In this document: piece after piece, positions 1 through 49,186 of the stretch
Layout of the letters: each line of letters opens with the position of its first letter
Position numbering within the stretch: the stretch's first letter is position 1
Notes under the pieces: generated by a model
Seen by the model: only the letters and a program-made list of their open reading frames with translations
Database searches by the model: none
What the model was told of the DNA's origin: nothing
Program-made: the position numbers and the translations under genes
NCBI GenBank assembly: GCA_963774325.1
Contig: CAVZEF010000002.1
Span: forward strand, 108 to 64,107
From: an uncultured Pseudomonadota bacterium
Lineage (GTDB): Bacteria > Myxococcota_A > Polyangia > Fen-1088
Direction of reading: 5' to 3'
Length of the DNA stretch: 64,000 nucleotides

Positions 1-1
1 T

Positions 2-1467
2 ACGCCGGCGCGGCGGGTCGTGGCGCTCGGCGCCGACGGCGACGGAGGCCTGACCTTGCGCAGCACGCCCACCGCGCGCGGCGTGGTCGCGGCGGTGCCT
101 GCGCCCGACGGCAGGAAGCTCTACTTGCTCAGCGCCGGCCACCGCGCGGCGCTCGGCGACTCGATCCCCGACGAAAAGCCACGCCTGACCGCTTTCGACG
201 ATGGCCCGGCGGCGCCGGTCGAGATCGATCTCGGCCTCACCGACCCGCTGGATGGATTGATCGTCGACCCGACCGGACGCTGGGCGGTGGTGTACGCGGC
301 CGCGAAGACCAGCCAGGCGCTGGTGAGCAACCCCAACGAGCTGGTGATCGTCGACCTCACGGCCGGCACCGCGCGCCATCACACCTTGCACAGCTTCGGC
401 GGCCGGCCGCAGCAGCTGACGATCACGCCGTCGCTGTCGCTGCCCGGGGGCCCGAGCCAGCTGCTGATCGTGCAGAGCGATCAGGAGATGGCGCTGCTGC
501 CGCTCGACGGCGACCCGGCCGCCGACGCCGAGATCACCGTGCGCCTCGACGACGGCGGCGCCACGCAACGCCCGCCGCCGGCGGCGATCGTCGTCGACGA
601 CGGCGACCCGACCGACACCGGTGACGCGCGCATCGGCATCCGCTTTCAGGGCGACCGCAACGTCATGACGTTGCAGCTCGCGCCCGCGCCGGGCGGCGCC
701 GCCGGGTTCCTGCCGTCGATCAACGTGGCCGACGCGGGCGGTGTCCCCACCGACATCGCGTTCGTGCGCACCGACGGTGGCTTGCGGCTGGCGGCGCTGG
801 TCCCGAGCGCGGGCGCCGCGGTGCTGATCGATCCCGCGACCACGGTGACCACGACGGTGGCGCTGCCGGCGCCGTACCAGCGGCTCTCGCTGGTGACCGC
901 GGGCGCGGGTGGCACCAGCGCCGACGTCGCGCTGCTGTGGCAAGGGGGCACCGCGGGCGCCGGCGTCGCGTTCTGGGAGCTGGGGCAGGCGGCGGGCCGG
1001 CCGTTCCGCAGCATCGAGACCGTCGCCGTCGGCGCCAAGGTCGGCGCGGTGCTCGACGTGCCGCTCGTGGGCGCGGCGCTCAAGGTCCTGGCCGCCGCGA
1101 GCACCCAGACGTTCTACGTGCTCGATCTGGCGGCGCGCACCGCCGCGCCGCTGTCGACCTCCGCGCCGGGCACCACGTTGACGGTCTCGCCGACCGGCGC
1201 GCGCGTCTGGACGTTCCTGCCGGGCGGCTCTGCCCTGGCCGCGACCGACGTGCTCTCGAAGCAGGTCTGGACGCTGCAATCCGATACGCCCATCGACCTC
1301 CGTCTTTGAAATTGGACACACCGCGAACGATCTCCGGACGCAGCCTGATCGCGCTGCACGAGACCGGCAACCTGGGCGTGACCGTGTACGACGCCGACGC
1401 CCCCGACGACAGCACACGCCGGATCTACGGCGGTCTCCTCGAGGAGGGCTCCGATGGCAACCCGTGA
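2..1467 (+). pseudogene. hypothetical protein, 5' end beyond the window, with one frame change near 1300
   Basis: ORF 20..1309 stays open to the window edge. After its TGA a GC3-rich coding signal continues in the frame of ORF 937..1467 (GRSLIALHETGNLGVTVYDADAPDD...) to the stop at 1465-1467. The protein is Ala/Gly/Thr/Pro-rich and I recognise no family. Confidence 0.4.
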
Positions 1468-2233
1468 TACTGGAAGAGGTCGGCGATGGCGCGCGGGGTT
1501 CGCCGCGCTGGCGATGGCCGGCACCATCACGGCGATCGCGCCGCGCGCGAACGCCCAGGTGTACCCGCCCGGCGCCCCGAGCGTGAGCGCGCCCAGGCCC
1601 TTCGCCGCGCGTCCGCCCGAGACGGCACCGCCCGAGCGGGGCTCCGATCGATGGCAGGCGGCGCTCGGTGTGCGCACCTCGGTCGTGCGCGATGCCGGCT
1701 TCGACCCGTTCTCGACGGGCGATGTGCTGCCGCAGTTCTCGGTCGTGGTGACGCATACGCTGCGGGCTGGCACGGGCTTCGTCCCGGCGCTGGGCCTGGC
1801 GGCGGACTTCGGAAGCAGCTCAGCCAACGCGCGCGGAGCCGACGCGCAGTTGCAGACCTGGCGGCTCGCGATCGTTCTCGAGCCGCGCTTCGTTCCGGCG
1901 TCGGGATTCTACGTGGGCGCTCGCATCGCGCCCGGATTGCTGCACACGTCGGCGCGGTTGCTCGATACGTCGGCGCCGGCCCCGCTCGCGGCCGCCTTCA
2001 CGACGGCGTCGATCGACGCGAGCCTGGTGGCGGGCGTGCGGCTCAATCCCGGGATGGGGCCGATCGGTTTGTGGCTCCTCGCAGACGCCGGCTACGGCTG
2101 GGCGCCGCGACGCGATCTCACGCTGGTGCCGGAGCTGCCGGCGCGCGACGCGAGCAAGGCCGGCACGACCGAGCTCGGATCGCTGTCGCCGCGCGGGATG
2201 TTCGGGCGCGTGAGCCTGGCCATCGGCTACTGA
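1454..2233 (+). CDS. putative secreted / outer-membrane beta-barrel-like protein
   Basis: Intact 259-aa ORF. The N-terminus (RGRRWRAGFAALAMAGTITAIAPRANA/Q) reads as a Sec signal peptide. Gly/Ala/Ser-rich alternating segments and the C-terminal ...VSLAIGY are compatible with a small OM barrel. The ATG overlaps the previous gene end by 14 nt. Family not recognised. Confidence 0.4.
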   Translation: MATRDTGRGRRWRAGFAALAMAGTITAIAPRANAQVYPPGAPSVSAPRPFAARPPETAPPERGSDRWQAALGVRTSVVRDAGFDPFSTGDVLPQFSVVVTHTLRAGTGFVPALGLAADFGSSSANARGADAQLQTWRLAIVLEPRFVPASGFYVGARIAPGLLHTSARLLDTSAPAPLAAAFTTASIDASLVAGVRLNPGMGPIGLWLLADAGYGWAPRRDLTLVPELPARDASKAGTTELGSLSPRGMFGRVSLAIGY

Positions 2234-2240
2234 ACCGCGT

Positions 2241-2585
2241 TCAAGCCGCGACGACGACGGTGTCGTTCGCGGGCGCGGTGCGCGAGGGATCGGGCATGCC
2301 GCGGAGCAACGCCGCGAACTGCGTCGCGCCCAGCTTGCGCACGATCTTGAGCGGCCGGTCGCGCAGGCGCGCCTCGCGCCGGGCGGCGCGCACGGCGTTG
2401 TGACTGTTGATCTCCGTGATGATGACGACCAGCTGCGATCGCGCCACCAGCGAGCGGAGCGCCAACGACGACGCAGGCCCTGCCATGACGCCGGTGTGAA
2501 ATCCGACCTCATGCCCCTGCGTCTCCGCCAGCGTCTGCAGCGCGGCCACGTTCCGGTCCAATCCGCCGATCACTCCGATGCGCAT
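2241..2585 (-). CDS. DUF2325-like small protein
   Basis: Intact 114-aa ORF (MRIGVIGGLDR...LVVIITEINSHNAVRAARREA...). The layout matches my memory of DUF2325. An AT-rich TATATAA box at 2625-2631, about 40 nt upstream of the ATG, is a possible -10 element. Confidence 0.5.
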   Translation of the reverse strand: MRIGVIGGLDRNVAALQTLAETQGHEVGFHTGVMAGPASSLALRSLVARSQLVVIITEINSHNAVRAARREARLRDRPLKIVRKLGATQFAALLRGMPDPSRTAPANDTVVVAA

Positions 2586-2699
2586 GATTCGTGTCTCCTC
2601 GCGCGCCCGCGCGAATGCATGTCTTATATAACAGACACGCCGGCAACTTCAAGGACGGGCGCCGGATATCGGCGGATGGCGGGCGCGCGGTCGCGCGGT

Positions 2700-5158
2700 T
2701 CAGATCTGCAGGCCGAGCAGCAAGCCCGGGTAGTGCCGCACCGTCGTCGTGCCGCTCTTCGAGACGCTCTGCAGGAAGCCGCTACCGATGTCGAGATCCT
2801 TCCCGTCCCAGGCGATGGTCGCGTTGTCGGAGATGCCGGCGATGGCGGAGAGGCCGGGGATGATCTGGAAGCCCGCCACGGCGCGCATCGACGCCCACAG
2901 CGGCGTGTTGTCGTAGTGAGAGAAATCCGACACGATGCTCATCGCGCTGGCTTCGATGGCCAGGAAGCGCAGCGGACCGAAGCTGACGGGCTGTCGGTAG
3001 CCGATGCCCAGGCCGGAGCCGATGCGGCGCGTGCTGCGGTGGAACTGATCGGGGCCGGCGCCGGTGACGAGCGCGTCGCCCGGCTGGTAGGCGAAAGTGT
3101 ACGAGGTGTACACGTGGCGGCTGCCGAGCTGGAGCTCGAAGTTGGAGAGCATGGTGTCGGTCGCGTATACCGCGACGCTGTGGATGCCGTTGCCGATGAC
3201 GTTCAACAGTCCGAGCGTGTCGCCGTCGTGCGCGCCGGCGATGTTGACCACGCCCAGCTTGAATCCGCGGCTGTGCTTGGCGACGTTGGCGACGCCAAGC
3301 TGCACGCCGTTCTGATCGCCCGCGACGTTGACCACGCCCAGCTGGGCGCCGTTCGACACCGAAGCGATGTTGAGCGGGGCCAGCTGCGCACCCGAGATCT
3401 CCCCGGCCAGGTTGGCGCCGCCGGCCAGCTGCGCGCCGTTCCAGCGGCCGAGGGTCAGGTTCAGGCCGCCCGCGAGCTGCGCGCCGCGACCGCCGCCGCG
3501 GGCGAAGTTGACGCCGGCGCCGAGCTGCGCGCCGTACGTGTCGCCGTCGACCCAGTTGACGCCCGCGGCGAGCTGCGCGCCGTGGAAGTCGCCGAGCACG
3601 ACGTTGGCGCCCGAGGTCAGCTGCGAGCCGCGGAACGCTTCGGTCGCGAGGTTGGCGCCGACCGCGAGCTGCGCGCCGCGCCCCGGACCGCGCAGCAGGT
3701 TGGCTCCGACGGTGAGCTGCGTGCCGTACATGAACTGATCGGCGATGTTCGCGCCGAGGGACAGCTGCAGTCCCGACGACAGGCCGCCGACGCGGTCCGC
3801 AAGGAAGCTGAACGAGAGGCCGTGGACGTCGACCTGCGAGTCGCCCGGCATGGGGACCAGACCCGAGGTGCACCGGGACCGCGCGTAGGGGGGTGCGAAG
3901 TGGCGCCAGCGGCGGTGAGGCGGCGGTGGCGGTGACGCTGGTGTCGGGCGCGGGGGCGTCGCCGCGCGTGGCGACGACCTCGAGAGGGCGGCCCGGGTGG
4001 AACGCGAGGCGAGCGAGCTCGGCGCGCTGGCCGAGCGCGAGCGTTGACGTTGGCTTCGAACACGGTGTTGCCGCCGCCGTCCATGGTGACGAGGTAGGGG
4101 CCGGCTTCGAGGCCGAGCTCGATGCCGTGGCCACCCATCTTGCGCAGCTCGACGACCAGGTTGCCGGCGGCGTCGCGCACGCCGATGCGGCCCGAGAGGT
4201 CGGAGGCGAGCGCCAGCGTCGCCTGTGTCGAGCGGACGTCGGTGACCACCAGGTCGGATGTGCCGACGAGGTCGAATTCGTAGGCGGCGTGCTGGGGACC
4301 ACCCTGGGTCTTCTCGGTGCGCGCGAGGGTCTCTTGCGCCGCGAACTCGAAGGCCTCCTGGAGGGTGACGCGGCGGTCGCGGTTGACGTCGGCGGCGCCG
4401 CGCAGGCCCGAAACCAGGTAGTGGGTGAAGAACGAGGCGCCGATGCGATCCGATTCCTGGGCGACTTCGTTGATGGCGCTCGAGGCGAGGTAGGCGTGGC
4501 CCTTGGTGTCGGCCGAGGAGTCCATCAGGAAGGGCGCGCGGCGCACGCCGCCCTTGCGACGCGTGAAGGCCCCGGAGGCGCAGGAGTCGAGGATCGCCAG
4601 GCGGACCTCGGCGGGGATGGCCTGGATGCGGGTGCGGAGCTCGTCGTAGCTGACGCGGTCGTTACCGATGAGCAGGCCGTCTTCGTCGGAGTGTCCAGAA
4701 TAGTAGATGACAACCTCGCGGCGGACCCCGGCGCGCTGGCCCGCGGCCACCAGGCGGCCCAGGCGGTCGAACGCGCCCAGGAACGCGAGGCGGGTCGCGT
4801 CGGAGACGAACACGACGTCGTCGGGGGCGACGCCGCCCAGGCTCTCGAGCACGCGGCTCATCGCGTGCGCGTCCGAGGTTGCGTAGCGCAGCTGCGGGCG
4901 GGTCGGGCCGCCGTCGTTGAAGCCGGCCATGAGCGCGAACCGCCGCAGCCGGACTCCGTCGATGGTGGCGGTCGGAGCGGTGGGGGTGGCGGCGAACGCG
5001 CCGCTCGGCAGGAGCGCGCCGGCGACCGCCAGCGCGATCCCAAGAAGGGCTGCCAGCTTCGCCGCTCGCAAGGCCTGCCCTCTCCCCGACCCTCCCCCGC
5101 AGACGGGAGAGGCAGAAAGAAAGGAAAGGCGGCGGGCGATTCTGCGACGAGAGGTCAT
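2700..5158 (-). pseudogene. caspase-family (peptidase C14) protein fused to a Gly-x-Gln-Leu repeat domain and a C-terminal beta-rich domain; two frame changes
   Basis: ORF 3617..5158 carries a signal/TM segment (LAALLGIALAVAGALL) and the C14 His/Cys dyad motifs (VVIYYSGHS, LAILDSCASG). Natural-looking sequence continues from ~4045 in the frame of ORF 2782..4302 (TLALGQRAELARLAFHPGRPLEVV...) and from ~3880 in ORF 2700..3851. The span is 2459 nt (3n+2). ATG 5158 overlaps the anti-sigma stop (ATGA). It could instead be two genes if a stop codon was lost. Confidence 0.7.
3207..3773 (-). repeat. about 12 tandem 14-16-aa coding repeats (G-[AST]-Q-L-x-x-G-x-N...) inside the caspase-linked ORF
   Basis: The protein reads GAQLAVGANLATEAFR / GSQLTSGANVVLGDFH / GAQLAAGVNWVDGDTY / GAQLGAGVNFARGGGR / GAQLAGGLNLTLGRWN and so on, shortening to 14-aa units (GAQLGVVNVAGDQN). 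On the + strand the DNA shows a recurring ...agctgcgcgcc... every 42-48 nt. Confidence 0.75.
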
Positions 5159-6042
5159 GGATTTCCCTTGCTGGTCTTCTGCAACAAGACCGACGTCTGA
5201 TGAAAGGCGGGCAACATCGGAAGTGGGGCCGTGCGGGCGCTCGGCCCTCGTCCGGCGAGAGAGCGCGCGGCATCGAGCGCCGCCGCGACGGGAAATGGTT
5301 GGGTCGAGGTGATGAGCACGAAGCGTTCGAAGCCGGGAGCGTCGTCGAGCTCGTAGGCCGACGGCAGATGGATCTCGTGGGGCGAGCGCAAGGAGGCCGC
5401 GGCGCTGGCGCCCGGCTCGGGCAAGTGCTGGGTCACGCGGCCGGCGCCGTCGATCGACAGCAGCACGCCGTAGCGCCCATCGCGCCCACCGGCATAGGCC
5501 AGCTGCAGCAGATCGCCGCGTGCGGCGCGCGCGCCGTCGCTCAGCCGCTCCGGCTGCTCCTGATTTGCCACCGTCCGCTGCCGGTACACCCAGAGCCGCG
5601 GCGACACCGACGGTTCACTCCCCTTGAAGTTGACATGCTCTTCCGGCTCGCCGCCGCCCGGCTGAGCCACGGCGGTCGAACCACCTTGATGAGACGGCGA
5701 CACCCCGTGCCCCGACCGCAACAACAAGAGGCCGATCCCCAGCGAGCCCGCGAGCGCCAGCGGCGCGATCCATAAGTTGACGCTCCGGCGCTGCGACGGC
5801 GTCTCCGCGGGGCGCGACGCGCGCCGGCGAATCTCCGCCATCGTCCGATCCTTGTCGACCTGGGAGTGGATCTCCTGGTTCGACGTCGTCAGCGCCGCAA
5901 GCTCGGTCTCGAGCGACCGGCCCTCGGCTGCCAGACGCGTTCGGAGCTCGTCGACCTGGGAGGCAGCCAGCTCGCCTTGTGCCGCGCGCTCCAGCAACCA
6001 GGTCGGGACTTTCTTCGATGCATCGTCGTGCGTTGAGCTCAT
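5155..6042 (-). CDS. putative anti-sigma factor (single-pass membrane protein)
   Basis: Intact 295-aa ORF. ATG 6042 overlaps the sigma stop (ATGA) and its own stop overlaps the caspase ATG. It has a cytoplasmic N-domain, one TM helix (LWIAPLALAGSLGIGLLLL) and a periplasmic domain (RLWVYRQR...YGVLLSIDGAGRV...FERFVLITS). That domain is tentatively reminiscent of the DUF4384-type domain often found with caspases. Confidence 0.5.
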   Translation of the reverse strand: MSSTHDDASKKVPTWLLERAAQGELAASQVDELRTRLAAEGRSLETELAALTTSNQEIHSQVDKDRTMAEIRRRASRPAETPSQRRSVNLWIAPLALAGSLGIGLLLLRSGHGVSPSHQGGSTAVAQPGGGEPEEHVNFKGSEPSVSPRLWVYRQRTVANQEQPERLSDGARAARGDLLQLAYAGGRDGRYGVLLSIDGAGRVTQHLPEPGASAAASLRSPHEIHLPSAYELDDAPGFERFVLITSTQPFPVAAALDAARSLAGRGPSARTAPLPMLPAFHQTSVLLQKTSKGNP

Positions 6043-6576
6043 GTTGGTACAGCTCCTTCCAACTGCGTGAGGCGGGCGCGCGCGGTGCGCAGGCGCTTGC
6101 GGACGCCCGAGACCGACAGACCCGCCTCGCGGGCGACCTCTTCCAGGGTCATTCCATCGACCAGATGCATGACCGCGATGGTCTGCGTGCTCGCCGCCAG
6201 CGGGTCATCCGTGCGGAAGAGCTTGGCGAGCAGATCGCGCGCCAGCGTGCGCCCATCGCCCTCGGTGTCCGAGGTTCCGGCGATCTGCCAGAATTCGCTC
6301 GTCGTCGGCGTCTTCGGGCCGGCGCCGTTCCGTGCGCAGGCGGTTCAGGCAGACGTTGGTGGCGACGCGCAGGAGCAGCGCCGCGGGTGCCTCGTCCTGG
6401 AGGCGGTCTTGATGGCGCAGCAGGGCCACGAAGACGTCCTGCATCGCGTCCTGCGCCTTCGCGTCATTGCGCAACAGCGCCCGACAACGCCTCAGGACCA
6501 TTGGGCCATACCTCTGGTAGAAGCCTTCGATATCGACTGGCACGTTTGGATTGCCTCCCGCATGTCCAGGGAACAC
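6039..6576 (-). pseudogene. ECF (group IV) sigma-70 factor, one frame change near 6300
   Basis: Region 2 (DAMQDVFVALL..., LLLRVATNVCLNRLR) lies in ORF 6205..6576. The next frame then reads EFWQIAGTSDTEGDGRTLARDLLAKLF...VMHLVDGMTLEEVAREAGLSVSGVRKRLRTARARL (region 4 HTH) to TGA 6039-6041. The span is 538 nt (3n+1). The start codon is uncertain (6576 or ~6543). Confidence 0.75.
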
Positions 6577-6660
6577 CGGCTGCGGTCGGATCTGTCACCG
6601 GGGAAGCGCAGATTGCACGATTTTCGAGAGGTCCGTCACGGGTAGGCCTCTCGGGGCCGT

Positions 6661-6784
6661 CGGCTCCCCCGTAGGCTCCCCCGCAGGCGTCGGCGTCGGC
6701 GTCGGCGTCCGAAGAAGGCGCGAGGTCTGATCGCCCACGCGCGACGCCGACGCCGACGGGGGAGCCGACGCCGACGCCGACGCC
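6661..6784. repeat. nested imperfect inverted repeat built from GGCGTC/GACGCC hexamers (possible terminator or REP-like element)
   Basis: cggctccccc (6661-6670) pairs with gggggagccg (6758-6767). (GGCGTC)x4 at 6686-6709 pairs with (GACGCC)x2+GACG at 6743-6758. A further (GACGCC)x3 tail lies at 6767-6784. The element sits downstream of the GH28 gene and upstream of the sigma gene, both on the - strand. There is no T-tract. Confidence 0.5.
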
Positions 6785-6812
6785 CGGAACGCTCGAGGTC
6801 AGAGGCCCGAAG

Positions 6813-8301
6813 TTAGAACGTGACCCAGACGTTCGTGCAGTCGCGCGGAGCGGCGGCGCCCGTGACCTGGTTATTCACGGTGACGTTGGTCGTCCCCGTG
6901 GGCACGATGTTCGTGACGGGGTTCGGACCCATGTTGAGCACGACGTTGCTGGCGTTGATGCTGCTGGGCGCGGTGTCGAGGACGACGTTGTCGAGCCACA
7001 ACGCTTCGGTGTGGACGGCATCCCAGCCGCGGAAGATCAGCTTGCCACCGGTCAGGCTGTGCACGTTGCGGATGGTGATGTCCTTGAACCAGGGAATCAG
7101 CAAGCCGGTAGCGCTGCTGTAGTAAGAATCGAAGACCAGCGGATCGCTCACGTTGCGCATGCACACGTCGGTGTAGCTGACCTGCTGGACGATACCGCCG
7201 CGGCTGGCGTCGGACTTGATGCGCAATCCGTTCTGGGCCCCGTCGATCGTCAGATCGCACACCACGACGTTCTGGACGCCGGCGTTGGTCTCGCTGCCGA
7301 TCGACATACCGTGGCCATGGCCAAAGTGGTTGTGCGCGATGACGATGTTGTTGACGGTCGGCGGCCCCGACGCCTTGATGGCGATGTTGTCGTCGCCGGT
7401 GCTGATCTTGTTGTACGCGATGATGCCGTTTGTCGACGCCGACGGGTCGACGCCGTCGGTGTTGACCGAGGTGGCAGGCGTGTTGATGGTGATGCCCCAG
7501 ACGGTGAAACCGTTGGTCCGCTCGATGACGACGTGGAACTTCGGCGCGTTCTTGAGCGTCACGCCCGAGAGCACGAAGCCGTTGCCCGGGCCGCACCCAG
7601 ACCATGCGCGGCGCGACCAGGTTTCCGTGGTCGGCGTCCTCGAGGTCCCACCAATTCAGGGTGCCCCCGATGATCAGCTCACCGCCGCGCCCGTCGAGGG
7701 TTCCGGTCCCCATCACCGCCGCGTTCTGCGAACCGAGGACGTTGATGAGCGCGTTGCAATCGCTGTTGCCGCCGGTCAAGCCGCACTTCCCGTTACCGGG
7801 CGTGCTGTCAAAATCGCGCGGGTCGCGCGAGCCAAACACCGTGACGCCGTCGTCGAGCCACAACGTCACGCCGTTCCTCAGGAACAGGCCGCCGACCAGA
7901 AACGCGACGTTGTCACCGGCGGTCACCAGGCGGACCGCTTGCCCCGCGGGACAGGCGTCGAGAGCGCTCTGGATGGCCACCGTGTCGAGAGTCGATTCGT
8001 CGGTCGGAATCCCGGTGGTCACCGTCTTGGTCGCCATCACGGTGGCGCACGTCGTGGCGGGAAGCACCGGCGCCGTGCCGATCGCGTCGCACGAGGCCGT
8101 CGGCAGCACCGGGCCCGTCGCGCCATCGGCCGCCGCGTCCGTCGTCATTCCCGCGCCCGCGCCGCCGAGGCCGGTCGAGGCGCCACCACCGGCGCCGGTG
8201 ACGATGTCGATCCCGGCGTCGTTGCCGCCCGACGGCGCCGCCCGCCAGCAGCCCGCTTGAAGCGCGACCGCGCTCGCGGCCAGCGTCAGCGCGACGCGCA
8301 A
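6813..8301 (-). pseudogene. glycoside hydrolase family 28 (polygalacturonase) lipoprotein, one frame change near 7590
   Basis: ORF 6871..8301 gives the lipoprotein signal (LTLAASAVALQAGC) and the N-terminal half. ORF 6813..7574 carries the GH28 motifs NTDGVD, GDDNIAIK, GHGMSIGSE and RIKS. The span is 3n+1. Confidence 0.8.
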
Positions 8302-8664
8302 CCCGTCCCGCGCGAACCACGGGAAAGATCGAAACAGCGAAGTGAAACGATCCGCGCAACGGAACGGCGGGATTCAGCGGCGACGATCATGAGGTTAGTC
8401 TCCGAAGGCGCAATTCGACCCACAGACAGGGTGTTCGCGACCCGCTGGAACGGCTCACAATTTCACGGGCTGTCGCGCCTGCACGCCGCCGCGTCGGGAA
8501 CGTGACGCGCCAAGCATCGCGTCGTCCAGACGCCATCGCCGCACTGCTCAAGCTCCATTTGCGGATCCCAGTGCTCGAGTCGGTAGGGGTCCGCTCTTGC
8601 GGTGCTCGCCGGCGGATGCAGGTTGGAGGGGAGGCGACCTGTTGTCTTGTCGCGCCCACCAGCC

Positions 8665-9054
8665 ATGACGAACCTGGGCACCGAGAATCGATCGGGACTG
8701 GACGGGGCCGATATCGTGCGGCTGCGCGATCGCCTGCTCGAGCTGCGCCAGAAGCTGCTCGAACGGCTGGCCGACGACCAGTCGACCATGCGCGAGGCGG
8801 AGCCACAAACCGAGCCGCTCGACGCCGCGGAGCAGACGCGCGAGCAGGACGACAGCGTCGCGTTCGCGGGCCGCGATCAGGCGTTGCTCGCCGAGATCGA
8901 GCGCGCGCTCGCCAAGGTCCAGACCGGTAGCTACGGCCTGTCCGAAGCGTCGGGCGAGCCGATCGGGCTGCGACGGCTGATGGCCGTCCCCTGGGCGCGC
9001 TACACCGTCGACGAAGAGCAAGAGACAGGCACGTTCAACGACGGCGACGGCTGA
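8665..9054 (+). CDS. DksA/TraR-family protein lacking the four zinc-finger cysteines
   Basis: ATG 8665 lies inside ORF 8602..9054. A coiled-coil region is followed by KVQTGSYGLSEASGEPIGLRRLMAVPWARYTVDEE. By eye alignment this is the DksA C4 finger segment with all four Cys positions substituted (S, S, T, E). Confidence 0.55.
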   Translation: MTNLGTENRSGLDGADIVRLRDRLLELRQKLLERLADDQSTMREAEPQTEPLDAAEQTREQDDSVAFAGRDQALLAEIERALAKVQTGSYGLSEASGEPIGLRRLMAVPWARYTVDEEQETGTFNDGDG

Positions 9055-9108
9055 CCAAGGCGGGTGCGCGCTCCGACGCCCCGCGCGCGTGGCACAATCC
9101 CGCGGCCG

Positions 9109-10529
9109 ATGTACCCGCTCACTGCTTCGCTGATCGCCCTGCCCGCTCTGCTGGCCGCAACACCCGCCAAGTTGCCGGCGGCACCGCACGCCGCCGCCCG
9201 CCGAGCGCCAGACCGCGCTCGACATCTTTCGCGAGCTGGTCGAGATCGACACGACCCACGAGCACGGCAGCACGGCTCCCGCCGCTGAAGCGATCGCCAG
9301 ACGCCTGCGCGCGGCCGGCATCCCCGACGCCGACATCCGGATCCTCGGGCCTTCGCCCACGAAGCAGAATCTGGTGGCGCGACTCCGTGGCGCGGGCCGG
9401 CGCCCGCCGCTCCTGCTGCTCGGCCACCTCGACGTGGTCGAGGCGCGCCGCGCCGACTGGACCCTCGAGCCGTTCCGCCTGACCGAACGCGACGGCTACT
9501 ACTACGGGCGCGGCACAGCAAGACATGAAGTCGCTCGACGCCTACTGGGTCGCGCACTTCCTGCGCCTGCACCGCGACCGGCGGCCGCTGGACCGTGACG
9601 TCATCCTGGCACTGACCGCCGACGAAGAAGCCGGCGACGCAAACGGCGTCGAATGGCTGCTGGCCCACGCGCCCGAGCTGATCCGCGCCGCCTACGCGCT
9701 GAACGAGGGCGGCGGCGGCGAGCTCAAGTCCGGGCTCCGCCGCGCCAACGACGTGCAGGCCAGCGAGAAGGGCTATTTCACCTTCCGCCTCGAGGTGCAC
9801 AACAAGGGCGGCCACAGCTCACTGCCCGAGCGCGACAACGCGATCGTGCGCCTGGCGCGCGCGTTGATCGCCGTGCACGACCACGTCTTCGACGCGCGCC
9901 TGACGCCGGTGACCCGCGCCTATTTCGTGCGCCTCGCCTCCCTCGAGAGCGGCGCGGTCGCCGCGGATCTGCGTACGCTCGCCTCGACGGAGGCCGGCAA
10001 ACCGATCGACGCGGCGGCGGCGATGCGCCTGTCGGCGCTGCCGTTCTACAACGCGCGCCTGCGCACGACCTGCGTACCGACGCGCGTGCAGGCCGGGCAC
10101 GCCGACAACGCGCTCCCGCAGCTGGCGACCGCGATCGTGAACTGCCGCCTCTTGCCGGGCGATTCGGTCGACGACGTCCGGCGCGCGCTCGAACACGCGA
10201 TCGCCGACGACGCCGTCAGCGTCGCGCCCGTCGGCCGCGTCGACTTCGGCCCCGACTCGCCGCTCTTGCCCGAGCTCTTCCAGGCGGTCACGGCGGTCAC
10301 CGCGCATCTCTGGCCCGGTGTCCCGGTGCTGCCGGTCATGAGCACGGGCGCCACCGACGGCCGCTTCCTGCGCGCGGCCGGCATCCCGACCTACGGTGTC
10401 TCGGGGCTGTTCGGCGACGTCGACGACGTGCGCGCGCACGGGCGCGATGAACGGGTGGGCGTGCAGGCGTTTTACGAGGGACAGGAGTTCACGTGGGAGC
10501 TGCTGCTGGCGCTGAGCGTCCCAAATTGA
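9109..10529 (+). pseudogene. M20-family metallopeptidase (ArgE/DapE/CPG2-like), secreted; two frame changes
   Basis: A signal-like N-terminus (MYPLTASLIALPALLAATPA) lies in ORF 9064..9288. It is followed by FRELVEIDTTHEHG and LLLLGHLDVVEA (ORF 9374..9598), then LTADEEAGDANG, GATDGRF and DVRAHGRDERV (ORF 9525..10529). The frames step +1 near 9190 and 9515. The span is 3n+2. Confidence 0.75.
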
Positions 10530-39228: not shown

Positions 39229-41160
39229 TTCCTCTGGCGGGCGACTCGGCGGCCGTCGTGCGGCCTCGGCCGGAGCTGGGCTCGCTCGACAGGTTGCCGG
39301 CGCTCGCCGACTTGAAGATGAAGAGGCCGTCGCCGATGCCGATGGTCTCGCCGTCGGTGAGCGGGCAGCGCTTGTCGACCGCGGAGCCCTCGACGGTGAC
39401 CGGACCGCCGAGCGGCGCGATCGCGAACTCGCCGCCGTCGAGCGTGATCTCGGCGTGCTCGGCGGCGACGGTGTGATCCTGCGACAGGCGGATCTGAGCA
39501 ACTCCCCGACGAGACCGATGACCGTGCGCTGCGTCGCCGAGCCGCAGCGTCTCGCCGCGCCGGCCGGCGCCGCCCGCGCGCACCAGCCAGCCGACGACGA
39601 TGCCCAGCGCGCCGACGCGCGTGCGCAGCGTGTCCTGGATCGCGACCACGGCGCCGCGCGCGCGCGGCGTGCCCAGCGCCGGGTGCGACGACGCGGCGGC
39701 GCGCAGCGCCTCGGCCAGGCGATCCAGGCCCAGGCTGGTGAACGCGGTGCACTCGTCGGCGCCCACGCGCGCCGCCACCGTGGCCGCCGCCTGATCCGGC
39801 GGCGTGCGGTTGCTGACCGCATCGGCCAGCACCGCCGCCAGCGCGTCGTCGAGCATCGGGCTGTCGACGGACTTCTTCGCGAGCAGGTCGCGGATCTCCT
39901 GCATGCGCAGCCGGCCGGGGCGCGTGCGGAAGTACGGGAAGCGCGGATCGGAGAAGACCTCCTGATCCAGGTTCGCGAGCTCGCCGATCGACTCCGGGAT
40001 AGTTGCGCGTCAGCTCGTCGACCGCTCGCCGGGGCGAGGCGCCGCGCCGGATGAGATCGTGCGCCGCCTGCAGGATCTCGTCGTCGCCGCCGCCGCCGCT
40101 CGCCGGTCGCCGGCGCATGAAGACGATCACCCGCCGGCCAGCAGCGCCAGCACGCCGACGCCGCCGAGCAGCAGCGAGCGCAGCTTGCCGGGGCCGATCG
40201 AGACCGCGCCCATGTCGGCGCCGAGCCGCTGCCCGCCACCGACGTTGAGCCGTGACGGACAGGTGGTGCGAGCCGCCCAGCAGGTGCCAGCCGAACGGCG
40301 TCGCCACGCGGACACGCAGCAGGTCGGCGATGCCCTGCCCCAGCGACTCGAGCGCGTTCTCGAGATCCTGCGGCTGGTCGAGCATGCGCAGCACGCCGCC
40401 CGCGGCGTCGTGGAAGTCGCTGAGGTTCGACGTCGCCTGCGCGCGATCGGCGTCGGGCGCCGGGAACGCCACCACCAGCGGCGTGACCCCCGCCTTGCGG
40501 ATCTCGCGCCCGAGCGCCGCGAAGTCGCCCGGCCCCTCCCCCTTGGGATCGGCGAAGTCGCGCCCGTCGGTGACCACGACCAGGATGCGCAACGGCGCCG
40601 GGTCGGCCGCCAGGTCGGCGAGATCCAGCCGCACCGCTTCGATCAGGTTGGGGCGGTTGCCGTCGATGTACGGCACGTCGCCGAGGCGGCTGACGTCGGC
40701 GGCGGTCAGGCGCGCGCGGCCCTGGCGCATGCGCCCGTAGACGGTCGGGATAGACCACGGTCCGCGAGGGCACGCGCTGGAAGAACGCCTGGATACCGTC
40801 GAGCACGCCGGGCGGGATGTGCTCGATCCAGAGGTAGACCAGGCCGACCGACACCGGCGGCTTCCAGGTCTTGTTGCCCTCGGCGGCCGTCGTCGACCAG
40901 TCGGACAGCGACTGGGTCACCGGCGGCGCGTCCGACTTCTGCCCGTCGATGGTCAGCTCCAGGCTGGTCGGCTTCAGCGAACGGCCGGCGTCGTTGAAGC
41001 CGCCCACGAAGAACGTCAGCTCGTCGGTCTCGGCGTCCACGACCGGCCGCGTGGTGATCAGCGCCGGCCCGACGGCCGCCGCCGTGCCCGGCAACATCGG
41101 GAGCACGAGCGCGAGCGCCGTGGCGATCGCAGCGGGGGTTCGCCGTCGGCTGATGGTCAT
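39225..41160 (-). pseudogene. signal peptide - vWA-like periplasmic domain - TM - cytoplasmic FHA domain protein; many frame changes; 3' end uncertain
   Basis: The parts are a signal peptide (MTISRRRTPAAIATALALVLPMLPGTAAA) and a vWA-like half (LRILVVVTDGRDFADPKGEG...GVTPLVVAFP). A TM helix LLLGGVGVLALLAGGVIVFM is followed by RRR. A C-terminal FHA domain follows (AEHAEITLDGGEFAIAPLGGPVTVEGSAVDKRCPLTDGETIGIGDGLFIFKSA). I could not see a MIDAS DxSxS motif. ATG 41160 overlaps the upstream stop (ATGA). Confidence 0.65.
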
Positions 41161-41946
41161 GGGGTTCGAACGCCGACCGGAGGAAGCCACAGCGACTTGA
41201 ACAGCAGCTCGGTGGTCCCGACCTTGATGATGTCACCGTCGGCCAGCCGGACGATCTCGCCCTTGACCAGCTTGTGCGAGTTGACGAAGGTGCCGTTCGC
41301 CGACGGCCCGGGCCGATCGCGGTCGCGGATCGTGAACGCATCGGTGCGCTCGCCGGTCATGCGGGCGGCTCAGCACGGCGTGCCCGCTCGACATGAAGCC
41401 GTCGTCGAAGGCGACCAGCTTGGCGGAGCCGATCGGCGGCGCGTCGGCGCGCGACAGCACGGCGTCGGCGTCGAGCTCGACGAGCGTCCCCTTCTTCGAC
41501 TCGTCGCCGGTGCGAATGACGATCAGCCAGCCCAGCGTCATGCCGCGCCGCCGCGTGCGATGCCGGCAGCTCGACCTGCCCGGGCGCGAAGAACATGGTC
41601 TTGGCGCCGACCAGGTTGGGCCGGCACTTGCCGCAGGTGGTGCCCCAGCCGGCCAGCATCGGCTCGCCGCAGTTGGGGCACGGGATCTCCGCGGGCGCCG
41701 ATTCCTCCGGCGGCTCCAGCGGCTCGAAGGCCCCGCTTGGCCCGCGCGAGCGTGCGCCGGCTCCCGTCCCGAGCCCGGGGTCGGACAGCGGGCTGCGCGG
41801 GCGCGCCGGCCTCCGCGGGGGCCCGCCCGACGAGACGCTGGCCCGCGGCGACCGCGCGGCGGCGTCGGCGACTCCGGCTGCTGGGGCGGCTGATTGCCGA
41901 GAAGATTTTTCAGCTTATCGAACACGCGGTTAGCGATGGTCATCAT
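41157..41946 (-). pseudogene. zinc-ribbon plus FHA domain protein, three frame changes
   Basis: The N-terminus MMTIANRVFDKLKNLLG is followed by a Pro/Arg-rich linker. The zinc ribbon is EIPCPNCGEPMLAGWGTTCGKCRPN (CxxC...CxxC). The FHA domain reads LGWLIVIRTGDESKKGTLVELD...SSGHAVLS...IRDRDRPGPSANGTFVNSHKL...LADGDIIKVGTTELLFK. Frame changes lie near 41800, 41560 and 41365. Confidence 0.7.
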
Positions 41947-42106: not shown

Positions 42107-44169
42107 ATGGCCAGCCGAAGATTCGCGCTCACGACCCACCCGACGCTCGCCGCCGCGTTCGCCGTGGCCGTCGCGGGCGGCGGCATCGCCGCGGTCGTCG
42201 ACGCTGCCGACCCGGCCGGCGCCGGCAGCCGAATCAGCGGGCGCGCAGTCCACCGCCATCATCGTCGCGGGCCAGCCGTTCGACGTCGGGCGCACGGTCG
42301 TGCTGTGGAAGGATCCGCAAGGGTTCGACGCCTACCAGGTCCGCTGCATCGACCAGCACGGCGGCTGCTGCGACACCGACTCCAAGCGCTACGGCTCGCG
42401 CAAGCTGGAACACGACTCTGTCGAGGACATGCAACAGCAGGTCTCGCAGCTGGTGCTGCACTTCGACGGCTGCGTGAACTCGCGCTCTTGCTTCAAGTCG
42501 ATGCACAACCGCACGCGCCCCAGCGGCGCCGGCTGCGGGCTGTCGGCGCACTTCATGATCGACGCCGACGGCACGATCTACCAGACGCTGGATCTGGTCG
42601 AGCGCGCGTTCCACGCCGAGGAGGCCAACGCCACCTCGATCGGCGTCGAGATCTGCAACCGCGGCAAGGTCGACCGCAGCGAGTGGCCCAAGCTGCCCGC
42701 CGAGTACCGCACGCGCCCCACGCGCGACGTGGTCATCAACGGCGAGCACCACGAGGCCTACGACTTCCGCCCCGAGCAGTACGATTCGCTGGTCGCGCTC
42801 GCGCGCACGCTGCTGCGCGTGTTCCCCAAGATCAAGCCGGTGATCCCGGAGCGCAACGGCCAGGTCATCATGGACACGCTGCCGGATCCGATGAGCTTCG
42901 CCGGCATCCTCGGCCACCTGCACGTCGATCTGCAGAGGCAAAAGTGGGATCCGGGCGCGCTCGACTGGCACCGGCTGATGCGCGCGCTCAACGGCTTCGA
43001 GCTGCCGGTGCAGATCCGATCCTTCACCGATCTGCCGCGCACGCAGCAGGATCTGGTGTCGGCGCGGCGCGCGGCGTTCTACAACGCCGAGGAGCGCGCC
43101 ACCGGGTTCTTCCCGGTCGCGCCCGGGCGCCTGTGGCACTCGGGCGTGCACATCCGCGCGGCGCTCGGGTCGAGCGTGCACGCGCCGACGCGCGGCCGCA
43201 TCATCGCCGCGCGCAACGCGACCGCGGGCGCGTCGTCGCGCTCGTTCGTGCTGATCCGCCACGACCTCGACGTCGACGACGAGCCGGTGACGTTCTACTC
43301 GCTGATCGCCCACATCGCGCTGCCGTCGGTGGGCTCGTACGAGGCCAACACCATCCCCTGGCTGCAGTCGGTCGCGCACGGTCCGGTGGCGATCCGGGCG
43401 GCGCTCGAGGCCGGCGAGGTCGTGAACATCGACGAGCGCGTCGAGGCCGGCGACGTCATCGGCCACGTCGGCACCGTGAGCCGCGGCCCCGAGCAGGGCC
43501 CCGAGATCCACTTCGAGATCTTCACCACCGAGCGTCTGGGCGGCGACTTCGGCCGCGCGTTCCACTACATCAACGCCGCCGGCGACGGGCCGATCACCCG
43601 GCGCGCCGACCTCATCAACATGGCCGACCGCAACGGCGACCAGGAGCTGTCGGCCGACGAGCTGCGCCAGTTCTTCCGCTCGGGCGACCTCGACAAGCGC
43701 CAGGCGCTTGCGCCGCGTGGTCGTGCGCCACCGCCACGAGTGGGGCGACCGCACCACCGAAGCCGAGTTCGTCGAGCCTGCGCGAGCTGGCCGGCATCCC
43801 GGAAGCCGAGCGCAGGCGCCTGTACGAGATCGCCATCGCGCCCTACATCTTCTGGACCGACGAGCTGTCGCGCGTCACCGGCCTGCCCGCCAACCAGACC
43901 ATCTACTCGTACAACGCGCTGACGTTCCTGCTGGAGCTGGCGTCGCGCGCCGCGCGCGTCGAGCTGCCCAAGACGCGCGGCCGCTGCGGTCGGCGAGAGC
44001 GGCGTCGAGCCGCGCAAGCTCGCCTCCGTGCCGGTGACCGACTGGACCGAGCCCAAGGCGACGCCCGGTCGAGGCCCCGCTGTTCGGCCCCCTCATCGGC
44101 GTGCGCCTCGGCCCGCGCCGCCGCGACGACATCCCGCTCATCGAGCTCGCGCCGACCGACAACCGGTGA
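42107..44169 (+). pseudogene. multidomain peptidoglycan hydrolase: signal peptide, Amidase_2 (MurNAc-L-Ala amidase/PGRP fold), variant M23/LytM domain, EF-hand-like loop, unknown C-terminal domain; five +1 frame changes
   Basis: The signal-like N-terminus is MASRRFALTTHPTLAAAFAVAVAGGGIAAV. Amidase_2 motifs are QLVLHFDG, SAHFMIDADGTIYQTLDLVERAFHA, NATSIGVEICN and ILGHLHVDLQRQKWDPG. M23-like motifs are WHSGVHIRAALGSSVHAPTRGRI, GDVIGHVGT and GPEIHFEIF. The EF-hand-like loop is DRNGDQELSADE. The frames run 42074, 42300, 43708, 42074, then two more to TGA 44167-44169. The span is 2063 nt, and 2063 minus 5 equals 3 x 686. Confidence 0.75.
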
Positions 44170-44245: not shown

Positions 44246-45413
44246 GTGGTCACGCGGCTCTGGATAGGGGTGTGTTCGCGAGCGCGCTGGGCGTTGCTGG
44301 CACTGGTTGCGGGCTGCTTTTCGAGCGCCCCGACCACCACCCTGTCGGCCAACAGCGACCCATACGGACTCTGTCCTCCGATCGATGCCGGCATGACCGG
44401 GAGCGGTGCCGGCAACGGCGAGACGCCGCCTTCCTGCGATGCGCCACCGCCGGCAAGCCCGCTCTCCGGCTGGGCCACCGTGTCCGGCATGGGCAACGGC
44501 ACGGTGTCGGTCGATACGACGACCGGCGGCGACCCCGCGGTGCCGATCAGCGTGACCACGCTGGCCGACCTCAACACCGCGCTCGCGGGCACGACGCCGG
44601 CGGTCGTGCAGATCGTCGGCATGACGATCAGCGGCAACGTGCGCGTCGGCTCGAACAAGACGCTGGTCGGCGTCTGCGGCGGCGTGGTTCAGGGCAACAT
44701 CAAGATCTCGGGCTCGTACAACGTCATCGTCCGCAACCTCAAGATCGTCGGCTACAACTGCAAGGATCCCGCCGCGGTCAACGCCAAGGACTGCTCGGCG
44801 GGCGCCGACGCGGTCACGATCAGCAACTCGCACCACGTCTGGTTCGATCACGACGACATCTCCGACGGCTCCGACGGCAACCTGGACATCAACCTGGCCT
44901 CCGACTTCATCACGCTGTCGTGGACCAAGTTCTATTACTCCGGGTCGCGCGTCGACCCGGCGGGCGCCGCCGGCGGACACGAGTTCTCGGACCTGATCGG
45001 CAGCTCCGACAACTCGACGACGGATGCGGGCCACCTGCGCGTGACCTGGCACCACGACTGGTGGGGCGCCAACGTGCACGAGCGCGAGCCGCGCGTGCGG
45101 TTCGGCGAGATTCACCTCTACAACAACCTGTGGACGTCGGTCAGCAACTCGTACTGCGTCGGCCTCGGCGTCGGCGCGAGCATCCTGGCCGAGAACAACG
45201 TCTTCCGCGGCGTGAACATTCCGTTCAACATCACCTCCTACGCCGACACCACCAGCGTGCTCGAGCCGCGCGCCAACCTGCTTCGAGGGGGTCACCGGCA
45301 ACACGGACGGCGTCGGCGGCGCGGCCTTCACGCCGCCCTACGACTACACCGTCGAAGAACCCTGCACCGCCGTCGCCGAGATCCTCACGCAGGCGGGACC
45401 GCAGTACGCGGGC
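44246..45413 (+). pseudogene. pectate lyase (PL1 family) lipoprotein; frame change near 45280; true stop not identifiable
   Basis: The lipobox is LALVAGC. PL1 motifs are HVWFDHDDISDGSDGNLDI, LRVTWHHDWW and REPRVRFGEIHLYNN (ORF 44246..45652). The natural C-terminus FEGVTGNTDGVGGAAFTPPYDYTVEEPCTAVAEILTQAGPQY reads in the third frame from 45282, which has no nearby stop. The end coordinate is approximate. Confidence 0.75.
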
Positions 45414-47162
45414 TCAGAATCCGCCTTGCGGATCGACGTGCGGCGCGGGGTCGGCGTCGGCGAGACCGCCCGCATCTTTCTCGTCGCGGATCTGCGTCAC
45501 CAGGCGGCGCAGCTGCTCCTGGTACATCGCCACCGCCGGCGCGAGCGCGACCGCGCGCTCCCAGTAGAGCACGGCGTCCAGCGGACGGCGCTCCGAGACC
45601 AGCGACAGGCCGCGATCGAAGCAGGCGGCGGCGACCGCCTCGTCCTCGCTGAGGTTGTGCGTCGGCGGCGACTGCGGCAGCGCCGATTCGGGCGGCGCGC
45701 CGCGCACCCACGCGGCGACCGGATTGACGCCCGCGCGGCGCACGACCGAGAACGGATCCGACAGCGCCGCCGGCGTAGGCACCCGCGTACCAGGCGCGGG
45801 CACCCGCGTACCAGGCGTGGGCAACCGCGCCGCAGGCGTCGGCAACCGCGCCGCAGGCGTCGGCAACCGCGCCGCAGGCGTGGGGATGAACGGCGGGCGG
45901 GGCGGGGCCGCGGCGACCGGCGGCTGCGCGGTCGGGCCGCCGGGAACGCGCGGCACAACCGGGGGCGTCGCCTGCTGCTGCAGCACCGAGAGGTCGTCGA
46001 GGCTGATCGCCGGCTTCACCGCCGTGGGCGTCGGACGCGGCGTGCGGCGGGCGGCGGCGCGCGCATCAACCTGCGGGTCCGCCGGCGGCGCGAGCACCGG
46101 GGGCGCCGCCGGTCGCGCAACCGCGGGTGCTGCGACCGAGGGCAAAATGCGCAGGCGCGCCGCCTGTCCCTCGGGCGTAGCCGGCATCTCGTGCACCGCC
46201 GCGCCCGCCTTGCGCAGGTGCTCGAGCACGTCGCCCTCGTCGGCGGCGTAGGGGTCGTTGCCGAGGTCGCTGGCCAGGAGTTGTAGAAGCTCGTCGGCCA
46301 GCCGATCCGCCCACCCGTAACGCTTGCGCAGGTCGGCGGCCATCGCGCGCCGCACGACGCGCGCGACCGACATCGGCACGTTGACCTTGGTGGTGATGTC
46401 GGGCGCCTGGCCGTCGATGATCTTCTTCACCATGTCCTGGCCGTCGAACGGGCTGATGCCGGCCAGGTACTCGTAGAGCATGATGCCGACCGAGTAGAGA
46501 TCGCTCCGCGCGTCGCCGACGTTTCCGCGCAACCGCTCGGGGCTCAGGTAGCGCAGCTTGCCGACCACCGAGCTCGACGGCGGCGGCGTGTTCGTGGTCG
46601 CCGCCGCGCCGAAGTCGATCAGCTTGGTCGCGCCCGCGTACGAGATCATGACGTTCTCGGGGCTGACGTCGCGATGGACGAATCCGACCGGTACGCCGTT
46701 TTCAGTCAGCGCGTGACCGTATGACAGCGCACGAACGACATCGAGCATGGCGCGCAGGAAAAAATTTCGCGGCAGCCGGCGCTGTTTGAGACGAAACGAT
46801 CGCCCGAGCTGGCGCAACGACCGCCCCGGCACGTACTCCATCGCGATGAAGTAGCGCCCCTCGTACTGGCCGAAATCGAAGACCTGGACCATGCCAGGAT
46901 GGTTCATGCGCGCGGCGATCTCCGCCTCGTTGATGAACATGCGCACCAGATCCGGCGTGTCGGCGAGCTCGGGCCTCATCGTCTTGATGACGATGTCCTT
47001 CTGAAAGCTCTCGACGCCGAGAACGCGGGCGCGCCAGACCTCCGCCATACCACCGGCGGACAGTCGGCCGAGTATCTCGTACCGACTGAAGTGCGATCCA
47101 GCTTTCCAAGCAAAGTGCCCGAGTGGCATCCGTCCCCCTGGTGGACGCTCTCCGCGATCCAA
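45414..47162 (-). CDS. Ser/Thr protein kinase with a Pro-rich repeat linker and a TPR-like C-terminus
   Basis: Intact 582-aa ORF. The kinase motifs are LSAGGMAEVWRA, IVIKTM, HRDVSPENV, DFGAA and LRYLSPE. The linker has PTPAARL x3 and PxPGTRV x2 repeats. The C-terminus (VLYWERAVALAP) looks TPR-like. Confidence 0.8.
   Translation of the reverse strand: MDRGERPPGGRMPLGHFAWKAGSHFSRYEILGRLSAGGMAEVWRARVLGVESFQKDIVIKTMRPELADTPDLVRMFINEAEIAARMNHPGMVQVFDFGQYEGRYFIAMEYVPGRSLRQLGRSFRLKQRRLPRNFFLRAMLDVVRALSYGHALTENGVPVGFVHRDVSPENVMISYAGATKLIDFGAAATTNTPPPSSSVVGKLRYLSPERLRGNVGDARSDLYSVGIMLYEYLAGISPFDGQDMVKKIIDGQAPDITTKVNVPMSVARVVRRAMAADLRKRYGWADRLADELLQLLASDLGNDPYAADEGDVLEHLRKAGAAVHEMPATPEGQAARLRILPSVAAPAVARPAAPPVLAPPADPQVDARAAARRTPRPTPTAVKPAISLDDLSVLQQQATPPVVPRVPGGPTAQPPVAAAPPRPPFIPTPAARLPTPAARLPTPAARLPTPGTRVPAPGTRVPTPAALSDPFSVVRRAGVNPVAAWVRGAPPESALPQSPPTHNLSEDEAVAAACFDRGLSLVSERRPLDAVLYWERAVALAPAVAMYQEQLRRLVTQIRDEKDAGGLADADPAPHVDPQGGF
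45778..45882 (-). repeat. five tandem 21-bp coding repeats within the kinase linker
   Basis: The + strand units are ggcacccgcgtaccaggcg(cg/tg) at 45778 and 45799, and ggcaaccgcgccgcaggcgt(c/c/g) at 45820, 45841 and 45862. They are in frame (7 aa each). Confidence 0.85.
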
Positions 47163-47270
47163 CGTTTTTGTGGCGCTGGCAAGCTATCACAAGCCGTCGC
47201 GAAACACGTGACAATTCAAGGTGCCGCGGGTTAATGACTCCGTCGAGGATGACGCATCGACTTCCGTTTC

Positions 47271-47318
47271 TTTCGGTTCCTGTTTCGGTTCCTGTTTCGG
47301 TTCCTGTTTCGGTTCCTG
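47271..47318. repeat. perfect 12-bp x4 direct tandem repeat (tttcggttcctg) in the kinase/kdgK divergent intergenic region
   Basis: The units start at 47271, 47283, 47295 and 47307. They are preceded by the related cttccgtttc. The array lies 80-127 nt upstream of the kdgK ATG and 109-156 nt upstream of the kinase ATG. Confidence 0.9.
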
Positions 47319-47397
47319 GACCAACGAACGCGACGACGCGCACCGCCGCGGAGGCCCCCACGCGTGACGCGGCGATTGTGGCATCCTCGCAACCGAC

Positions 47398-48508
47398 ATG
47401 AGCAACCTCGCGATCAAAACGGCGGCGCAATGCCGCTTCGATGAAGTGAGTCTGGGCGAGGTGATGCTGCGCCTCGATCCCGGTGAAGGGCGGATTCACA
47501 CCACGCGCAGCTTCACCGCCTGGGAAGGCGGCGGCGAGTACAACGTCGCCCGCGGGCTGCGCCGCTGCTTCGGCCTGCGCACAGCGATCGTCACCGCGCT
47601 GGCCGACAACCCGGTCGGGACGCCTGGTCGAGGATCTGATGTTGCAAGGTGGCGTCGACCTGTCCTTTCTCCGATGGGTGAAGTACGACGGCGTCGGGCG
47701 CGAGAGCCGCAACGGGCTCAACTTCACCGAACGCGGCTTCGGCCCGCGCGGCGGCGTCGGCTGCTCCGACCGCGGCCACACCGCGATCGCCCAGCTCGCG
47801 CCGGGCGCCGTCGACTGGGACGCGATCTTCGGCGGCGCCGGCCAGGGCGCGCGCTGGCTCCACACCGGCGGCATCTTCGCCGCGCTGTCGGCCACGACAC
47901 CGGCGGTCGCGCGCGAGGCGATGGAGGCGGCGCGCCGGCACGGCACGCGCATCTCGTACGATCTCAACTACCGCGACTCGCTGTGGCGCGCCAACGGCGG
48001 ACAGGCGCGCGCGCGCGAGGTCAACCGCGCGCTGATGCCGTTCGTCGACGTGCTTTTCGGGAACGAGGAGGACTTCTCGGCCGCGTTGGGGTTCGAGCTG
48101 GACGGCGTCGATCCGGAATTCAAGGACCTGCCGACCGCGAGCTTCCGCGGCATGATCGGCAAGGTCGTCGCGGCGTTCCCCAACATCCAGGCCGTGGCCA
48201 CCACGCTGCGCACGGCGCGCTCCGCCAGCGCCAACGGCTGGGGCGCGATCGCCTACGGCGGCGGCGCGTTTCACGAGGTGCCCCAGCGCGACGTCGAGAT
48301 CCTGGACCGCGTCGGCGGCGGCGACTCGTTCGCGTCGGGGCTGATCTACGGCCTGCTCGCCGGCAAGGACCTGCCCTGGGCGCTCCGCTGCGGCGTCGCT
48401 CACGGCGCGCTGGCGATGACGACGCCGGGCGACACGACGATGGCGACGCTGCCCGAGGTGCTGCGCGCCATGGACGGCCCCAACGCCCGCATCGATAGAT
48501 GCAGATGA
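47398..48508 (+). pseudogene. kdgK: 2-dehydro-3-deoxygluconokinase (PfkB family), one frame change near 47620
   Basis: FDEVSLGEVMLRLDPGEGRI...WEGGGEYNVARGL (ORF 47398) is followed by ORF 47483..48508 with DRVGGGDSFASGLIYGLL and TPGDTT. The span is 1111 nt (3n+1). Confidence 0.75.
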
Positions 48509-48515
48509 GGCTCGC

Positions 48516-49186
48516 ATGAAGGCATCGACGAAACGCGAAACCATCCGTCGCTACATCGAGGAGATCGGGATCGTCCCCGTGGTGCGCGCTCCCTCGGCCG
48601 AGCTGGCCTGCGCGCGGCCGAGGCCGTGCTGGCCGGCGGCATCTCGGTCTTCGAGATCACCATGACCGTGCCCGGCGCCGTCGACGTGATTCGCGAGCTG
48701 TGCGAGCGCTTCCGCGGCCGCGCGCTCATCGGCGCGGGCACGGTGCTGAACCCCGACGACGCGCTGACCTGCATCGACGCGGGCGCGCAGTTCATCGTCG
48801 GCCCCGGGCTGAACCTGGCGACGATCGCCGCCGCGCACGCGCGCGAGGTGCCGGCGATGCCGGGCGCGCTGACACCGACCGAGGTGATCACCGCCTGGGA
48901 GGCCGGCGCCGACATGGTGAAGATCTTCCCCTGCGGCGCGGTCGGCGGCGCGAAATATCTGCGCGCGCTGCGCGGGCCGCTGCCGCAAGTTCGCATGCTG
49001 CCGACCGGCGGCGTGAGCGCGGTGACCGCCGGCGACTACATCGCCTCGGGCGCGTCGGCGCTGGGCGTCGGCTCGGAGCTCATCGACCCGGCGGCGCTGG
49101 CGGCCGGCGACGACCACGTGCTGACCGAGCGGGCGAGCGAGCTGGTGGCGGCGGTGAAGGCCGCGCGAGCAAAGCTGATCGCGTAG
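48516..49186 (+). pseudogene. eda: KDPG / KHG aldolase (Eda family), one frame change near 48600
   Basis: ATG 48516 gives MKASTKRETIRRYIEEIGIVPVVRAPSAE. ORF 48626..49186 then has GGISVFEITMTVPGA, IGAGTVL, PGALTPTEV, VKIFP and PTGGV, which are Eda motifs. Confidence 0.75.

Follow-up and report, generated by a model that had tools for sequence, protein, structure and literature searches.

The one-base frame changes, about 70 in number and mostly insertions, that interrupt the genes of a type VI secretion system (T6SS) cluster and its neighbours in the 64,000-nt stretch of DNA analysed here (the window) are very probably consensus errors of the assembly and not mutations in the organism, as comparative and genome-wide evidence indicates. 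The window comprises bases 108-64107 of a 3.17 Mb contig, i.e., the contig's very start, in an 8.57 Mb assembly of an uncultured bacterium (G000; 6 contigs, guanine-cytosine (GC) content ~69%). The insertions in the T6SS genes are attributed to consensus error because the same kind of change occurs genome-wide and breaks essential genes. An initial annotation, made from the letters of the window, had proposed an unpolished, insertion-prone consensus, and this proposal is supported by the genome-wide spread of the changes, the broken rpoC and fusA genes, the clean orthologous DNA of a same-genus genome (G002), and the lack of relaxed selection in the affected genes.

Private insertions and deletions (indels) were identified with blastn by aligning the window in turn to the syntenic DNA from each of four genomes of the same genus (G001-G004), a private insertion being a base absent from every covering relative (2-4 per site). 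By this measure, the window carries 67 one-base insertions and 13 one-base deletions of its own, which confirms the ~70 mostly insertional changes read from the sequence at the outset. In a stricter, symmetric four-way comparison (G000, G001, G002, and G004, over about 42-44 kb), 63 insertions and 8 deletions were private to G000 in ~42 kb. An alignment-free detector, a Viterbi frame tracker based on codon bias, was also run on the window, the whole genome, and the relatives' syntenic DNA; its counts are a lower bound, as about half of the window's alignment-defined events were caught. The tracker gives the same pattern: it reports 39 frameshift-like switches (33 of insertion type) within the window's first 51 kb, well above chance, as the syntenic G002 contig yields a single event over 69 kb. 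Beyond the alignment counts, it finds one further change in each of three genes (tagH, hcp, and the amidase gene). The positions of the private insertions span about 1.3-47.6 kb, leaving 19.7-25.9 kb, 31.4-33.4 kb, 35.2-37.3 kb, and everything beyond 47.6 kb free of insertions. The uneven density reported earlier was recovered together with its frame-change-free stretches, and it reaches ~1 change per 105 nt in clpV. Among the four sites at which a -1 change had been suspected, the one near 17475 was found by alignment and those near 16445 and 17965 by the tracker, while the one near 41800 was not recovered.

Over the whole 8.57 Mb, the tracker detects no fewer than 2,800 frameshift-like switches, which corresponds to 3.3 per 10 kb; 82% are of insertion type, and every contig contains some. 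Counts per 50-kb bin range from 1 to 57, and the first bin of the window, with 39, lies in the top few per cent and below the maximum. The counts are over-dispersed, with no event in 48% of the 5-kb bins where a Poisson distribution would leave 20% empty; their autocorrelation reaches about 1-5 kb, and 85 event-free gaps longer than 20 kb sum to 2.7 Mb. Since this unevenness is genome-wide, it is not special to the T6SS locus; the whole assembly is equally patchy. The correlation of switch density with GC content is weak (rho 0.27) and confounded with coding density.

The frame changes extend to essential genes, and the genes that are broken differ between assemblies. In G000, rpoC is divided into four frame pieces and the fusA gene of the str operon into three; rpoC is one open frame in G001, and fusA is intact in both G001 and G004. 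The rpoB gene is intact in G000 and falls into three frame pieces in G004, where the split gene occupies C4:16386-20464 and rpoC, with one frame change near its start, C4:20696-24767. The G004 assembly shares the defect of the window's genome.

The comparison of the same genes across assemblies separates the genomes by contig number and completeness. In the four-way comparison, private one-base insertions and deletions number 36 and 5 in G004, 35 and 9 in G001, and 1 and 1 in G002, and the tracker counts on the remaining syntenic DNA are 4 in 21 kb (G003) and, mostly of insertion type, 45 in 72 kb (G004) and 22 in 73 kb (G001). No insertion position in the syntenic comparison is common to any two genomes. 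The few-contig genomes have low estimated completeness (G000, 6 contigs, 78%; G001, 7 contigs, 78%; G004, 9 contigs, 67%), and the fragmented genomes of the same genus have higher estimates (G002, 750 contigs, 91%; G003, 250 contigs, 96%). Because G001 and G004 are defective, G002 is clean, and no positions are common, the defect goes with assemblies of few contigs and low completeness and follows neither phylogeny nor the T6SS locus. To judge from contig numbers only, the few-contig assemblies would be long-read and the fragmented ones short-read, and G000 itself was probably sequenced with a long-read technology.

Selection on the sequence between the indels was assessed by reading the window codon by codon through DNA alignment to the intact G002 orthologues, both for stop codons and for the ratio of nonsynonymous to synonymous substitution rates (dN/dS). 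The earlier impression that nonsense mutations are lacking holds: among the roughly 15,000 codons aligned, no more than one is a stop. The dN/dS values against G002 are 0.03-0.23 in every gene, and the genes with the most damage (clpV, tssK, tssM, and tssC) do not differ in this from their unbroken neighbours. Substitutions private to G000 show a codon-position ratio, (1+2)/3, of 0.49 versus 0.45 in G002; their density is uncorrelated with that of the insertions, and the densest insertion bin has few of them. The coding sequence between the insertions is under normal purifying selection. Real decay that produced ~80 indels should also have brought many substitutions and some stops, and as neither is seen, decay is not supported. 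A plain tblastn search of G002 proteins against the window was set aside in favour of the codon-wise reading, since at 70% GC its high-scoring segment pairs overran in wrong frames and produced spurious stops.

Gene identities were taken from Pfam scans of the intact G002 orthologues, which recognised tssA, tssB, tssC, hcp, tssE, tssF, tssG, clpV, tssJ, tssK, tssL, and tssM together with tagF and tagH; the proteins scanned, which represent part of the open reading frames (ORFs) of the window, included neither VgrG nor PAAR. The cluster runs in the order tssJ, tssK, tssL, tssM, and tagF, then on the opposite strand clpV, tssG, tssF, tssE, hcp, tssC, tssB, and tssA, after which come a tagH-like FHA protein, a second FHA protein, and an Amidase_2/M23 protein. 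The flanking genes (a caspase-domain protein, GH28, two Ser/Thr kinases, a pectate lyase, and a PfkB kinase) are unrelated to T6SS. The features and their frame changes are as follows.

1-48700: stretch with frame changes, which affect both T6SS and non-T6SS genes; private 1-nt insertions 67, private 1-nt deletions about 8.
2703-12192: upstream non-T6SS genes; insertions in the caspase-domain protein (3), GH28 (2), a 478-aa protein (1), and a Ser/Thr kinase (1).
12366-12935, plus strand: tssJ (T6SS-SciN lipoprotein), from Pfam on the G002 orthologue; 3 private insertions.
12977-14349, plus strand: tssK (T6SS_VasE); 5 private insertions; dN/dS 0.08.
14397-15056, plus strand: tssL (DotU); no frame change.
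15055-18618, plus strand: tssM (IcmF-related); 5 insertions, 1 deletion; dN/dS 0.10.
18609-19568, plus strand: tagF; no frame change.
25803-28521, minus strand: clpV/tssH (AAA+ ATPase); densest patch, 23 insertions and 3 deletions, ~1 per 105 nt; dN/dS 0.19; no stop codon.
28583-29956, minus strand: tssG; 1 insertion, 1 deletion.
29791-31666, minus strand: tssF; 1 insertion; dN/dS 0.05.
31669-32337, minus strand: tssE (gp25-like); no frame change.
33123-33589, minus strand: hcp; 2 frame changes, 1 by alignment and 1 from tblastn and the frame tracker.
33750-35286, minus strand: tssC (VipB); 3 insertions; dN/dS 0.07; 97% amino acid (aa) identity to G002 in the largest tblastn frame piece (399 aa).
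35246-36804, minus strand: tssB (VipA) and tssA (ImpA_N); no frame change.
37098-38256, plus strand: tagH-like FHA protein (FHA and T6SS_FHA_C); 2-3 insertions.
39233-41190, minus strand: 651-aa protein, no Pfam match; 5 insertions, 1 deletion.
41160-41925, minus strand: FHA-domain protein; 1-2 frame changes.
42107-44169, plus strand: Amidase_2 and M23-like protein; 4-5 insertions.
44270-48499: non-T6SS genes; pectate lyase 1, Ser/Thr kinase 1+1, PfkB sugar kinase 1.
49400-64000: stretch without frame changes, one of many in the genome.

The number of insertions per gene had also been deduced at the outset from gene lengths, by asking which excess leaves a multiple of three, and the aligned counts, given as insertions plus deletions where both occur, agree closely with that arithmetic (tssK 5, tssM 5+1, clpV 23+3, tssC 3, the amidase gene 4, tagH 2). 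As judged from the proteins scanned, the T6SS cluster may be complete; it looks to be under purifying selection and probably works in the organism.

Bacteria can do without T6SS clusters and often lose them, and a recent, genuine pseudogenisation of the locus, in which insertions accumulated after the loss of selection, would suit a region as heavily affected as this one (26 changes in clpV alone) as well as the finding that clpV-tssG is also the densest patch in G001. Such an event is nonetheless very improbable, given that the adjoining non-T6SS genes are equally affected, that the same changes occur throughout the genome (no less than 3.3 per 10 kb), with rpoC and fusA among the genes they break, and that the near-absence of stops, the low dN/dS values, and the lack of any excess of private substitutions speak against decay. 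The direction of the changes argues likewise, as bacterial gene decay is usually deletion-biased and the bias observed here is about 5:1 towards insertions. Extending the event to the entire genome, as a real mutational state with thousands of true +1 insertions (a hypermutator or reductive decay), would account for the genome-wide, insertion-biased pattern, but it deserves hardly any credence: broken rpoC and fusA are incompatible with a living cell, purifying selection is intact between the insertions, and the state would be needed in three separate assemblies while being absent from the 750-contig G002, so that it would follow assembly type and not phylogeny. The real hypermutated or decaying locus that had initially been offered as the alternative is therefore unsupported.

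The conservation of the sequence between frame changes, which resembles that of expressed genes, would also be expected if the extra bases were real and bypassed by programmed +1 frameshifting, transcriptional slippage, or RNA editing. Such recoding is extremely improbable here, because there is no slippery run or common motif, most sites lie outside homopolymers, none of them recurs in a relative, the mechanism would have to act at thousands of sites, and the G002 orthologues are plain open frames. The polarity of a gap is arbitrary in any single pairwise alignment, and the window might accordingly be correct and its relatives carry one-base deletions, or the alignment gaps be misplaced; the probability of this is negligible, as at every site the window is contradicted by as many as four independent assemblies that agree with one another, and the G002 orthologues are uninterrupted with full-length Pfam matches, whereas the frames of the window switch. 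It is very improbable, too, that a minority of the changes are real. On that reading, the clpV-tssG peak seen in G000 and G001 and lacking in G004 could reflect a T6SS ATPase gene that is variable or undergoing inactivation in natural populations of these myxobacteria, or the insertion map could trace strain-level polymorphism in the population sampled.

If the frame changes are consensus errors, they would have arisen from noisy reads, most likely long reads, with too little polishing or too thin coverage. The residual errors would then be almost purely single extra bases, left in kilobase-scale patches genome-wide, and it would be by chance that the T6SS cluster, at the start of a contig, falls within a 50-kb stretch denser than most. 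The patchiness may come from local read depth or from mixed strains.

The insertions have a signature of their own. The inserted bases mirror the base composition of the genome, and no sequence motif was found around the insertion sites. Only about 25-31% of the insertions extend a homopolymer compared with about 49% expected at random, and 50 of the 67 sites lie outside any run; as homopolymer extension is below expectation, these are not homopolymer errors. Among the non-homopolymer insertions in G000, 21 of 46 (~46%) match the allele that relatives carry at an adjacent site, compared with 20% under the null (p = 7e-5). The match is repeated in G004 (9/20, p = 0.01) and is similar and non-significant in G001 (6/16, p = 0.08). 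A tentative explanation for some of the insertions is that, where a mixed population yields reads with different bases at a site, both alleles enter the consensus in tandem. The second alleles are traceable to no single known relative among those compared.

Three observations weigh against consensus error as set out here. Typical nanopore consensus errors are homopolymer deletions, and non-homopolymer insertions without extra substitutions are unlike them. The densest insertion patch, clpV-tssG (window 25800-30000), is common to G000 and G001 at differing positions, a coincidence that random depth fluctuation does not predict; G004 has no insertions there, and apart from this common peak the bin-wise correlation of insertions between assemblies is not significant. 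The codon-slot test of tandem alleles was likewise non-significant, with 25 of 33 sites beside a third codon position versus 67% expected and 30 sites unmappable.

Set beside known cases, G000 resembles a noisy long-read consensus (PacBio continuous long reads (CLR) or Nanopore) in its single-base indels without substitutions, their genome-wide extent, the split ORFs, and the lowered marker completeness, as well as in the absence of the defect from the independent 750-contig G002. It departs from the best-known nanopore errors, which are homopolymer deletions, in that insertions prevail by about 5:1 and mostly fall outside homopolymers. Long-read assemblies are described as leaving mainly indel errors, which result in fragmented genes and false pseudogenes (PMC8445201; PMC8692599), and in a diploid parasite genome, collapsed allelic variants added indel errors to the long-read consensus (PMC8445201). 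The adjacent-allele match in G000 (~46% versus 20% by chance) and the patchiness are reminiscent of that collapsed-allele case, from which G000 differs in that its mixed population is inferred only, no single donor relative is apparent, and the codon-slot test is non-significant. Like the pseudogene-rich genomes of host-restricted bacteria, G000 has many frameshifted genes; those genomes, however, combine nonsense mutations, deletions, insertion sequences, relaxed dN/dS, and spared essential genes, none of which holds in G000.

Apparent pseudogenes, split genes, and "decayed" elements in G000 are suspect until the assembly is polished, and the same applies at least to G001 and G004. The signature itself (pure insertions, mostly non-homopolymer, often repeating an adjacent variable site) may be of interest to those who build consensus callers.

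Several further observations concern the window and its genome. Part of the T6SS cluster, at window 20400-24450, is missing from the relatives to a differing extent: about 20.4-23.0 kb is absent from G002, 20.8-24.4 kb from G004, and 19.6-24.4 kb from G001. The ORFs of this part encode a 240-aa protein with no Pfam match and a 421-aa protein with a di-haem cytochrome c peroxidase (CCP_MauG) domain, and it is a lineage-specific insertion inside the cluster, free of frame changes. Directly downstream of clpV, at 24458-25807 on the minus strand, lies an intact gene for a 449-aa protein with TPR repeats and a class I SAM methyltransferase domain, which is kept in G002. G000 has only one repeat longer than 1.5 kb at 94% identity or more, and this repeat is essentially gap-free and uninformative as a yardstick of haplotig error; its copies, C3:1350822-1354855 and C4:186289-190272, match in two blocks, one of 2.4 kb (99.8% identity) and one of 1.6 kb (98.5%), that together contain a single gap, and they are probably two copies of the rRNA operon. 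Finally, the AT skew is strongly negative (about -0.165) in the 2-kb bins at 26000-28000 (clpV) and 34000-36000 (tssC/tssB), which probably reflects the codon and amino acid composition of these minus-strand genes.

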